Assembly: GCA_937989945.1 (NCBI GenBank) | Contig: CALKIG010000114.1 | Location: 3,330 to 67,329, forward strand | DNA length: 64,000 bases | DNA from: an uncultured Actinomycetes bacterium | GTDB lineage: Bacteria; Actinomycetota; Acidimicrobiia; Spongiisociales; ZC4RG35 | Direction of reading: 5' to 3' | Part shown: positions 7,628 to 9,749 of the stretch, piece by piece | Layout of the letters: every line of letters starts with the position of its first letter | How positions within the stretch are numbered: position 1 is the first letter of the stretch | The notes under the pieces: generated by a model | Seen by the model: the letters and a program-made list of their open reading frames with translations, nothing else | Told to the model about the DNA's origin: nothing | Databases searched by the model: none | Translations under genes and position numbers: made by a program

Positions 7628-8369
7628 CAGTTTTGTTACTACCAATTCTCCTCAAGTGGGGAGAGGAGTTGGCGGCCAGGTCATTTCTGCCTGACTCTGC
7701 ATGTCGCCATGCAGCTCGGACTATATCTTCACCCATCTGACTGATGGGGTTCGGCGTATAGTCTCTGAGGGTTCTGAATTCCTACGATCTCATGTAGCTT
7801 CCACTTCCGGTATCGGCCATCCCCGTTCATCTGAAAGGCCAGGCGCACCAGCCGATCGAAACCCGATCGATTGAGATGTGCTCCTGCCTCCATCGATTCA
7901 ACGATGATGGCAAATATTTCGAAAGTGCGTTGCTTGTCTGAGAGCAATGGATTTCGATGAAAGAAGGGTATGACCCGTTCCATGAGGTGACGTCTGCGTC
8001 TGACGACGTAGACCAGAGTTCGATCTGACGACCTGCTGAGGTCGTTTTGCCTGATCGAACCGCATCCGAGTACCGATTGGAATGTGGACAACACTGTTGC
8101 CCTCTCTCCGTTCTGGCTTACCCGGAACTCAGGAACAAGTTGGAAACCATTCGTCAGGTCGAGTCGTCGAGTGACTCCAACTGAGAATGAACCTTCTCCA
8201 TCGGCGAATCCACTTAGGTAGGACTCCAGCCTTCCCTGCTGATTATCCGCACCGATCGGATTTTCACTTCCCATGTCGCCACCCTACGAAGAGGATGTGA
8301 CATGAATGAGTACCGTCGGATACACGGGTTTTCCAGCATATAGCCGAATTTATAGACAGCAATGGTCTT
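7628..8369 (-). mobile_element. group I intron in 23S rRNA helix 93 (between E. coli U2604 and U2605 equivalents), ORF-containing
   Basis: 742-nt insert. 5' exon ends in U and the insert ends in G. IGS GCUGUCU (8360..8354) pairs with exon AGACAGU, ending in a U.G wobble. Core elements: P AUGCUGGAAA 8339..8330; Q AAUCAGCAGG 8244..8235; R UCAGAGACUAUA 7768..7757; S AAGAUAUAGUCC 7729..7718. P3 is UUCGGC 8348..8343 / GCCGAA 7755..7750. Confidence 0.85.
7729..8274 (-). CDS. LAGLIDADG homing endonuclease, single-motif (homodimer-type), intron-encoded
   Basis: 181 aa. [17 protein letters not shown] is a LAGLIDADG motif near the N-terminus and there is no second motif. Size is like I-CreI/I-CeuI-class enzymes. 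Clearly homologous to the ORF at 9100..9618. Confidence 0.9.
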
Positions 8370-9041
8370 ACTGTCTCACGACGTTCTGAACCCAGCTCGC
8401 GTGCCGCTTTAACGGGCGAACAGCCCGACCCTTGGGACCTGCTACGGCCCCAGGATGCGACGAGCCGACATCGAGGTGCCAAACACCCCCGTCGATATGG
8501 ACTCTTGGGGGGTATAAGCCTGTTATCCCCGGAGTACCTTTTAGCCGTTGAGCCATGGCGCACCCACGTGCCACCATGGGATCACTAATCCCGACTTTCG
8601 TCCCTGCTCGACTCGTAAGTCTCGCAGTCAAGCTCCCTTGTGCATTTACACTCAACGCCTGATTGCCGACCAGGCTGAGGGAACCTTTGGGCGCCTCCGT
8701 TACTCTTTAGGAGGCCACCGCCCCAGTGAAACTGCCTACCAGACACTGTTCCCGATCCAGATAATGGACCCGGGTTAGATGGCCGTCAGATGAAGGGTGG
8801 TATTTCAACGTTGACTCCACGACAGCTAGCGCCGCCGCTTCTCAGTCTCCCACCTATCCTGCACATCAACTGCCAGACACCAATGTCAAGCTACAGTAAA
8901 GGTTCCGGGGTCTTTCCGTCCTGCCGCAAGTAGTGAGCATCTTTACTCACACTGCAATTTCGCCGAGTCTCTGGTTGAGACAGTACCCAAGTCGTTACGC
9001 CATTCGTGCAGGTCGGAACTTACCCGACAAGGAATTTCGCT

Positions 9042-9749
9042 CATATTGATCCCCATGTCGCCATGGGGTATGGACCATATCTTCACCCCTCGTCGTCGAT
9101 TACGAAGGAGGCTGGCGTATGGCCTCTGAGGATTCCAGGTATCGAGATCGCTGTTTGCGATTCATCTTCTCGGTGATCCTTGCGATCGTCTCGAGTCCCT
9201 CGCGGGACAGGTGACGTTCATCAGTCATCATCGAGATCACCTTGCCAAACAACTCGAAGTCGTTCCGCTTGGTGGTCATCAGTGGGCGTTCTTCGAAGAA
9301 CGGAATGATCCGCTCGACGAGGTCAGATCTTCGCTTCACCGAGTACCGCAAAAGGCGGTGGTGGTGATCGTCTGATCTGTTGTTCTGGATAACAGTTCCG
9401 CAGCCAAAGAAATCGATGAGATCTTCGAGTATGCGGCGTGAGGGCTCTGCCTGAGTGACCGAGAACTCGTGCTGGACTTGCCAGCCGAGTCGGCACCCGG
9501 AGTTCCTCACTACTGAGATCGAGAAGCAGCCTTCGCCGTCGACAAAGCCGACGACCCACTGCTCGAAACCTGGCCTTTCCTGCTGATTGACCGCACCGGA
9601 TAGATTTTCACTGCCCATGTCTCGACCCTACGGAGAGGGTGTGACATGAATGAGTACTACCGGATACTCGGTGTTTCCAGCATATAGCCAGCTGCTAACC
9701 GCGATGTTGCCATCACGGAGGGCAGTCACTCTTGCACGGAGAGTGGTCT
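9042..9749 (-). mobile_element. group I intron in 23S rRNA at the U1931 site, ORF-containing
   Basis: 708-nt insert between ...CGGUCCUAAGGU and AGCGAAAUUCC.... 5' exon ends in U and the insert ends in G (AUCAAUAUG). Core elements: P AUGCUGGAAA 9683..9674; Q AAUCAGCAGG 9588..9579; R UCAGAGGCCAUA 9129..9118; S AAGAUAUGGUCC 9083..9072. P3 is GCUGGC 9692..9687 / GCCAGC 9116..9111. Extra 5' hairpins lie at 9745..9727 and 9718..9699 (the latter with a GCAA tetraloop). Confidence 0.85.
9100..9618 (-). CDS. LAGLIDADG homing endonuclease, single-motif (homodimer-type), intron-encoded
   Basis: 172 aa. FEQWVVGFVDGEGCFSISV is a LAGLIDADG motif. Shares MGSEN..GA.NQQ, GCG(S/T)(I/V).QN, RR..L.ERIIPFF and other blocks with the 7729..8274 ORF. 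Confidence 0.9.
   Translation of the reverse strand: MGSENLSGAVNQQERPGFEQWVVGFVDGEGCFSISVVRNSGCRLGWQVQHEFSVTQAEPSRRILEDLIDFFGCGTVIQNNRSDDHHHRLLRYSVKRRSDLVERIIPFFEERPLMTTKRNDFELFGKVISMMTDERHLSREGLETIARITEKMNRKQRSRYLESSEAIRQPPS

Follow-up and report, generated by a model that had tools for sequence, protein, structure and literature searches.

The window analyzed here, a stretch of 64,000 nucleotides from an uncultured Actinomycetes bacterium (GenBank assembly GCA_937989945.1, contig CALKIG010000114.1, positions 3,330 to 67,329 of the forward strand), contains a ribosomal RNA (rRNA) operon whose 23S gene is split into three exons by two group I introns, each of which carries an open reading frame (ORF) for a LAGLIDADG homing endonuclease (HE1 and HE2). 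Rfam places the operon on the minus strand, with the 16S gene at 13741..12213, the 23S gene starting at 11841, and the 5S gene at 7265..7149. The features of the interrupted gene are compiled in Table 1, where the insertion sites L1931 and L2604 are given in E. coli 23S numbering.

Both introns can be delimited to the nucleotide: The junctions read U^AGACC...AUAUG^AGCGAAAUU for intron 1 (upstream exon end ...GGUCCUAAGGU, downstream exon start AGCGAAAUUCC) and GAGACAGU^AAGACC...AAAACUG^UCGGUCCC for intron 2 (upstream exon end ...GUGAGACAGU, downstream exon start UCGGUCCCUAUC), with ^ marking the splice junction. Each set of junctions is unique, and in both cases the 5' exon terminates in U and the intron in G, as the group I rule demands; the boundaries proposed in a first-pass annotation of this DNA (9749..9042 and 8369..7628) are exact. 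Exon 3 (7627..~7337), which shares 79–97% identity with 3' exons from other loci, falls outside the Rfam large subunit (LSU) match, which stops at 8329, just within intron 2, despite claiming model positions 1–2925. The introns would cause automated annotation to truncate this 23S gene, and they can moreover upset rRNA-based binning or primer-based surveys.

Table 1. Features of the intron-containing 23S rRNA gene in the window
Feature	Coordinates	Strand	Description
23S rRNA exon 1	9750..11841	minus	E. coli 1 to 1931; Rfam RF02541, 2390 bits; 3' end ...GGUCCUAAGGU
Group I intron 1, site L1931	9042..9749	minus	708 nt, after E. coli U1931; 71 same-site homologues among the loci
Intron 1 P1 3' part and P2 hairpin	9693..9749	minus	Read from sequence
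Intron 1 5' core	9575..9692	minus	P3 5' strand, P4, P5/P5a/P5b, start-codon hairpin, P4', P6 start; from family anchors, covariation and minimum free energy (MFE) fold
HE1 ORF, single-motif LAGLIDADG homing endonuclease	9100..9618	minus	172 aa; Pfam PF00961, E 1.5e-22
Intron 1 3' core	9042..9133	minus	P6', J6/7, P7, P3', P8, J8/7, P7', P9, terminal G
23S rRNA exon 2	8370..9041	minus	E. coli 1932 to 2604; 672 nt
Group I intron 2, site L2604	7628..8369	minus	742 nt, after E. coli U2604
Intron 2 P1 loop and guide	8349..8369	minus	From sequence and Rfam alignment of the L043 homologue
Intron 2 5' core	8231..8348	minus	P3 to P6 start, including start-codon hairpin; from anchors, covariation and MFE fold
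HE2 ORF, single-motif LAGLIDADG homing endonuclease	7729..8274	minus	181 aa; Pfam PF00961, E 1.4e-17
Intron 2 3' core and 3' extension	7628..7772	minus	P6' to P9, then extension
23S rRNA exon 3	7337..7627	minus	E. coli 2605 to 3' end
Presumed intron-less targets in 23S rDNA			1931 site GGTCCTAAGGTAGCGAAATTCC; 2604 site CGTGAGACAGTTCGGTCCCTATC

The two introns share a ribozyme core and differ at their peripheries. The P1 of intron 1 is an extended stem (CACUCU/AGAGUG) with the guide CUGCC, which probably pairs with the 5' exon (GGUAG/CUGCC), and is followed by a P2 hairpin with a GNRA loop (CCGUGAUG-GCAA-CAUCGCGG); its 3' core is overlapped by the ORF as far as the P8 loop, and its 3' end is short. 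In intron 2, the guide GCUGUC pairs with the exon sequence GACAGU, leaving a U.G pair at the splice site, P2 is missing, and P9 is followed by an extension of ~60 nt consisting of AGUCAGGCAGAAAUGACCUGGCC, a further hairpin, and GUAGUAACAAAACUG. This extension is absent from intron 1 and recurs in introns at sites L1917 and L1923, which likewise have no P2. Both introns open with AGACCA (AAGACCAUU vs AGACCACU; 8349-8369 and 9740-9749, minus strand), whereas their guides differ; the GACC of intron 2 could pair with the exon sequence GGUC as P10, while that of intron 1 has no obvious partner. Against the group I model RF00028, intron 1 scores 26.4 bits (E 9e-4) and intron 2 scores 41.3 bits (E 3e-8).

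HE1 and HE2 are well-supported members of the LAGLIDADG_1 family (PF00961; 80.9 and 64.9 bits at a cut-off of 23.1). Their motifs read GFVDGEG and GFADGEG, with D27, G28, E29, and G30 invariant in 16 aligned sequences; the acidic residue at the motif end we take to be catalytic, by analogy with I-CreI and I-CeuI. The best matches in the PDB (sequence E-values of 2e-46 for HE1 and 4e-28 for HE2) are two-domain monomers, whereas the window enzymes carry a single motif and are therefore presumably homodimers. The same Pfam fold is found in the domains of the single-chain I-OnuI/I-SmaMI group and in the homodimeric 5gkk and I-Vdi141I (3e54). Each enzyme may cleave its intron-less site, which is indirectly supported by the clustering of the proteins according to insertion site and by the activity of I-ShaI, an enzyme of Candidate Phyla Radiation bacteria that apparently comes from the 1931 site (PMC11270868).

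The coding sequence is threaded through the ribozyme in the same manner in both introns. The P5 domain contains an inserted hairpin whose 3' strand holds the AUG; from there, the reading frame crosses P5a', P5', and P4', so that the invariant Asn-Gln-Gln is encoded by AAUCAGCAG, the 3' strand of P4. It then proceeds into P6, places the body of the enzyme in the P6a loop, and re-enters the core via P6', J6/7, P7, and P3'. The stop codon lies in the P8 loop for HE1 and is the UGA of J8/7 for HE2. The RNA motif CCUCAGAG-P7-P3' common to both introns (9100-9140 and 7729-7775, minus strand) is thereby translated in two frames, as SSEAIRQP in HE1 and as QNPQRLYAE in HE2, each tail being conserved among the relatives of its enzyme. 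Because the two ORFs read the motif in different frames, CCUCAGAG must be conserved at the RNA level.

That the two inserts align closely had been noticed in the first-pass annotation and holds up on formal comparison: The two 88-nt strings quoted there (intron offsets 60 and 24) align without a gap at 86.4% identity. In a global alignment, the similarity runs from P3 to about codon 20 and resumes from J6/7 to P9, and the window contains exactly two copies of the core motif GCTATATGCTGGAAA (0.35 expected). Where the helices differ, pairing is kept, as had likewise been claimed: P3 is GCUGGC/GCCAGC in intron 1 and UUCGGC/GCCGAA in intron 2, P7 is GGCCAUA/UAUGGUC and GACUAUA/UAUAGUC, P9 is CCCCAUG/CAUGGGG and CUGCAUG/CAUGCAG, and the differences in the inner stem of the start-codon hairpin are equally real. 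For both introns, MFE folding of the P4–P5 domain (z about -3) yields the helices P4, P5, P5a, and P5b along with the hairpin sequestering the AUG.

The covariation first proposed for this pair extends to the whole intron family. In 96 distinct family sequences, from which the ORF body and a variable hairpin were removed, 90.8% of the cells at modelled pairs are canonical, compared to 32–46% when the partners are slid by 1–3 columns. P3 and P9 are paired in 100% of cases and show double-sided changes at 5/6 and 6/7 pairs, respectively; the corresponding figures are 92% and 5/5 for P6a, 88% and 7/7 for P5a, and 92% and 3/7 for P7. The columns of P8 pair poorly (41%) and were left out of the support; the length of this helix varies, so that its columns are misaligned or out of register, which is no evidence against P8. 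Set against these cores, the proteins have diverged further, as the first-pass annotation had stated (HE1 vs HE2: 40% identity, BLASTP E 1e-37).

For the relatives of the two introns, a scan with one genome per species provided 80 loci, mostly from metagenome-assembled genomes (MAGs) labelled Acidimicrobiia, other Actinomycetota, or Solirubrobacterales, plus bacteria of the Candidate Phyla Radiation (CPR). The loci were picked by similarity to HE1, so that L1931 is present in all of them by construction, and the introns were catalogued by mapping the loci onto the spliced 23S sequence of the window. A search with 12-mer exon flanks (up to 2 mismatches) produced many false sites, of which only those collinear with BLAST segments were kept.

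In endonuclease, full-length intron, and core alike, each window intron is closer to counterparts at the same site in other organisms than to its partner in the same gene. HE1 (4074 homologues) reaches 81% identity to its best same-site homologue, HE2 (1328 homologues) reaches 94% and 81%, and the two share 40% with each other. The full-length introns are 62% identical to one another, whereas the best same-site relative of intron 1 has 84% identity (L020) and those of intron 2 have 94% (L087) and 84% (L001). Over 176 core columns, the window pair scores 0.773, and the best same-site values are 0.898 for intron 1 and 0.915 for intron 2. The first-pass annotation had itself named closer same-site relatives elsewhere as the observation that would speak against its interpretation, and this is what we find. 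Two of the near relatives, L007 and L020, are MAGs labelled Acidobacteriota with a 23S sequence 92–95% identical to that of the window, in contrast to the Acidimicrobiia or Actinomycetota labels of other close relatives; some of these MAGs probably have a wrong label or an rRNA operon binned with the wrong genome.

The L2604 intron is present in 20 sequences including the window (the 19 others are among L001–L086), plus L087, and all of the recovered L2604 introns come from MAGs labelled Actinomycetota except for one labelled Acidobacteria. Introns at L1931 and L2604 occur together in at least 14 other MAGs, most of them labelled Actinomycetota (15 with the window in the core alignment), and the hosts of this combination extend down to a 23S exon identity of about 0.75; on the homologous contigs L001–L003, both endonuclease genes stand in tandem with the same spacing. 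When genomes with both introns are compared in pairs, phylogenetically informative positions in the endonuclease body group the sequences by site at a ratio of 347:14:12 in hosts with less than 0.8 23S exon identity, with similar ratios at all other distances. Core positions group by site for hosts above 0.8 identity (for example 130:27:13 in the 3' core), and between close host relatives core identity is about 0.90 at the same site but 0.73–0.75 across sites. Because the informative positions group the introns by site and same-site cores are closer, the site lineages must have been distinct before these hosts diverged.

Intron-less alleles, which the first-pass annotation had suggested looking for, do exist: The 2604 site is uninterrupted in 44 fetched loci. 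We also observed ORF-less L2604 mini-introns of 275–320 nt (L043:4696-4970, L060:4309-4585, L027:4247-4537, and L086:2317-2636), which retain the code for the first ~15 residues (GSDNA.GADNQQER) because this segment forms P5a', P5', P4', and P6, as well as frameshifted L2604 ORFs in L033 and L070. The coexistence of ORF-less, frameshifted, and intron-less alleles fits the expectation for homing and a cycle of gain, decay, and loss.

The pair belongs to a larger group. Introns at L1911, L1917, L1923, and L2262, whose U^...G^ junctions were verified, contain the same core, which is recognized by the family anchors GCUAUAUGCUGGAAA ... AAUCAGCAGGAAAG ... AUCCUCAGAGRCYAUACGC ... UGAAGAUAURGUCC ... 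CAUGGCGACAUG. One ribozyme family hence occupies at least six 23S sites (L1911, L1917, L1923, L1931, L2262, and L2604). In contrast, introns at L1951, L2449, L2500, and L2593 of the same loci lack the four family anchors and are of a visibly different class; for this reason, the similarity of introns 1 and 2 is specific to the family and does not reflect a universal consensus.

Within the family, L1931 and L2604 are not each other's exclusive nearest paralogues. The core of intron 1 is closer to the L1911 cores (median 0.81, max 0.84) than to intron 2 (0.77), and its identity to L1923 cores reaches up to 0.80. HE2 is 43% identical to an L1923 endonuclease, 41% to an L1951 endonuclease, and 40% to HE1, with a mean identity of 35–37% to every other site, and a clade joining the L1931 and L2604 endonucleases receives 4% bootstrap support. 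Overall, the endonucleases of L1911, L1917, L1923, L1931, L1951, and L2604 share about 26–37% mutual identity. L1951 endonucleases (L014:3593-4354 and L031:976-1711) are as close to HE2 (35–41%) as HE1 is; since L1951 introns belong to another ribozyme class, the endonuclease family crosses ribozyme classes. The idea of a single lineage at two sites thus stands as far as one ribozyme family is concerned, but the pair is neither exclusive nor recent.

Several arrangements in the catalogue are worth recording. L1911 introns (after U1911, GGCGGCCGU^...G^AACUAUAACGG) occur in L024, L026, L029, L030, L058, L067, and L083 (for example L030:2115-2847), some with a LAGLIDADG ORF and some ORF-less (287–381 nt); this site is not among the bacterial sites in PMC1995217 or PMC11270868, organellar catalogues not having been checked. 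Some Actinomycetota 23S genes (L008, L029, L014, and L030) contain 3–4 group I introns separated by exons of 8–20 nt, such as L008:2113-3859 with L1923, L1931, and L1951, or L029 with L1911, L1931, L1951, and L2593.

Taken together, we consider it probable (roughly 0.85) that the window harbors two mobile group I introns of one widespread family which are distant paralogues, representing old site lineages within a family that recurrently colonizes sites. One 23S rRNA gene is interrupted at L1931 and L2604 by elements of a common design with a complex P5 domain and an ORF that starts in the P5 hairpin, passes through P4'/P6, carries its main part in the P6a loop, and terminates within the 3' core. 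According to this reading, the elements are mobile. Each intron would fold as a ribozyme and splice itself out of the pre-23S rRNA, and its homodimeric LAGLIDADG enzyme would cut the cognate intron-less 23S rDNA site, whose repair would copy the intron in (homing). The L1931 and L2604 lineages would have parted long before the lineage of this organism arose, each intron being inherited or transferred as a site-specific element, with the pair co-occurring in many Actinomycetota MAGs. Since the family resides at non-homologous rRNA sites, transfer between sites must have occurred in its history; the colonization of new sites, however, would be a recurrent trait of the whole family rather than one L1931-to-L2604 event.

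A number of points weigh against this interpretation or blur it. Both introns stay below the Rfam gathering score of 50 for RF00028, plausibly because of the ~450-nt ORF insert in P6: With 70.7 bits, the ORF-less L2604 homologue in L043 exceeds the threshold, and its alignment to the model assigns P1, P3, P4, P5, P6, P8, and P9. We infer splicing and endonuclease activity from conservation. As the loci were chosen by HE1 similarity, L1931 is over-sampled, which biases the estimate of the depth of the site lineages. Crude neighbor-joining (NJ) trees of the endonucleases, built on short alignments, recover the site clades with bootstrap values of only 31–55%, and the NJ tree of the 176 core columns gives 0% for the L1931 and L2604 clades; because this tree left the sites unresolved, we used pairwise identities and quartet counts. 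Moreover, there is substantial host-lineage signal in the cores of distant hosts, so strict descent by site is not the whole story.

This host signal leads to an alternative that we regard as possible, albeit with clearly less confidence than the reading above, namely that the introns are mosaics: Endonuclease genes would be old and bound to their site, whereas ribozyme scaffolds within one gene or host clade would exchange sequence by gene conversion or be re-used at a new site, such that part of the similarity between introns 1 and 2 would have been kept or renewed by exchange instead of stemming from one old duplication. Cross-site core identity is slightly higher within than between genomes (0.757 vs 0.730, permutation p<0.0002), and in distant hosts the informative core positions favor grouping by host over grouping by site in both the 5' core (183 vs 67) and the 3' core (145 vs 121). 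On the genome set of the endonuclease test, the core splits into 150 positions for host, 204 for site, and 45 for other groupings, while the endonuclease body favors site (347 for site vs 14 for host). It also fits that the L1951-class enzymes are as near to HE2 as HE1 is, and that a single variant of P5a and the P5 extension is common to the Solirubrobacterales introns at L1917, L1931, and L2604. The two introns of L033 (L1931 at 2920-3607, L2604 at 4281-5021) share P3 (CUUGGC), P8, and P9 and have the top cross-site core identity (0.838), as would be expected if sequence had recently been exchanged or duplicated between L1931 and L2604 in the lineage of this MAG. Grouping by site, however, dominates for the window pair and wherever the hosts exceed 0.8 identity, and the excess of same-site over cross-site core identity in close hosts shows that homogenization is not ongoing. 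The quartets are furthermore non-independent (12–15 genomes from few clades) and count paired columns twice, and faster evolution in some host clades, composition, or shared selection favoring a host-specific start-codon context could mimic a host signal. What the data suggest is some host-lineage signal in the ribozyme cores that is missing from the endonuclease genes. The Solirubrobacterales variant mentioned above (L052, L053, L043, L060, L068, and L071) has a P5a of GCAC/GUGU and a P5 extension containing ..UUCCGUCC.., and is devoid of the window-type AUG hairpin; the ORF probably starts at a GUG on the 3' side of P5a.

The first-pass annotation had interpreted the pair as an ectopic transposition event, by reverse splicing with a changed guide or by retargeting of the endonuclease. 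Placed in this genome or its near ancestors, such a recent move between L1931 and L2604 appears very improbable to us. Homologous cores with compensatory changes are what it would leave behind, and the slightly raised cross-site identity within genomes would agree with it; yet nothing points to transposition in this genome, where the same-genome partner is far more distant than the same-site relatives in both intron (62% vs 84% and 94%) and protein (40% vs 81% and 94%). The core of intron 1 is nearer to L1911 cores than to intron 2, the peripheries differ (P2 and a short 3' end vs no P2 and a long P9 extension), and both introns co-occur, grouped by site, in hosts down to about 0.75 23S identity. 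The split is old, and in hosts above 0.8 identity the site-wise grouping holds. A further argument in favor of a recent event is the start-codon hairpin, which is 89% identical between the window introns and in that 40-nt window at least as similar as to same-site relatives: When we looked for a recent gene-conversion tract with a sliding window, only this hairpin (0.89) matched same-site similarity. Since an L1911 intron in a different genome (L029) carries the same hairpin consensus (ACCCUCUUCGUAGGGUG), we do not claim conversion in the genome analyzed here; the hairpin may be a retained ancestral form. That the resemblance reflects nothing but the universal group I core (P/Q/R/S) of otherwise unrelated introns, which the first-pass annotation had set as a refutation of its proposal, is the least credible reading of all and can be dismissed: J8/7-P7 (UGAAGAUAUAGUC) and J6/7 (UCAGAGACUAUACG) are near the RF00028 consensus, but the shared region (86% identity over 88 nt) also takes in the P5 domain, which is not universal, as well as about 20 initial codons, and the four sites with a different core fail the anchors.

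The interpretation as two old site lineages of one family connects to what has been reported for other bacteria. Haugen et al. (2007) described bacterial introns with single-motif LAGLIDADG genes at L1917, L1931, L1951, and L2593, with ORFs that extend into the core, similarity between L1917 and L1931 introns, and site-specific clades (PMC1995217). A survey of CPR bacteria published in J Bacteriol in 2024 found LAGLIDADG_1 insertions at 23S positions 1917, 1931, 1952, 2593, 2604, and 2657, endonucleases that cluster by site across distant hosts, and an active enzyme, I-ShaI, encoded by the insertion named 23IS7, which seems to correspond to the 1931 site; close proteins at different sites were taken as suggesting ectopic transposition (PMC11270868). 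As that study gives site ranges, the equations 23IS7 = 1931 and 23IS13 = 2604 are our own mapping. The combination of L1931 with L2604 and the idea of transposition have thus already been published for other bacteria (PMC11270868); a literature search on L2604 group I introns yielded no further paper. Our analysis extends the pair, so far described for CPR, to Actinomycetota (Acidimicrobiia-like) genomes, where it appears to be common. If the mosaic alternative were true, cores across sites in one host clade could be more alike than same-site cores in distant clades, and multi-intron bacterial 23S genes would be a natural system for studying gene conversion between introns and the reshuffling of ribozymes and homing endonuclease genes (HEGs). 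The conflict between endonuclease and ribozyme signal is relevant to an old problem, the means by which group I introns arrive at new sites.

Compared by description, the published L1931 introns agree with intron 1 in site, in length (654–700 nt vs 708 nt here), in a single-motif LAGLIDADG ORF of about 160–170 aa that runs into the core, and in a complex P5 region. They differ in that published L1917/L1931 introns are described without P2, whereas intron 1 has a P2-like GNRA hairpin, and in the host, which here is an uncultured organism. The CPR insertions at 1931 and 2604 share the two sites, LAGLIDADG_1 proteins of about 180 aa, group I-like flanks, and the occurrence of ORF-containing and ORF-less forms at one site (PMC11270868). 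Their hosts are CPR bacteria, whereas the L2604 hosts recovered here are Actinomycetota-labelled with the single exception noted above; the CPR L2604 elements likely belong to the same ribozyme family as intron 2. The 23S gene of Synechococcus sp. C9, finally, is another example of one gene with multiple HEGs: It contains three endonuclease-encoding group I introns (L1917, L1931, and L2593), of which those at L1917 and L1931 are structurally similar (PMC1995217), but where the window has L2604, Synechococcus sp. C9 has L2593, whose introns represent a different ribozyme class.

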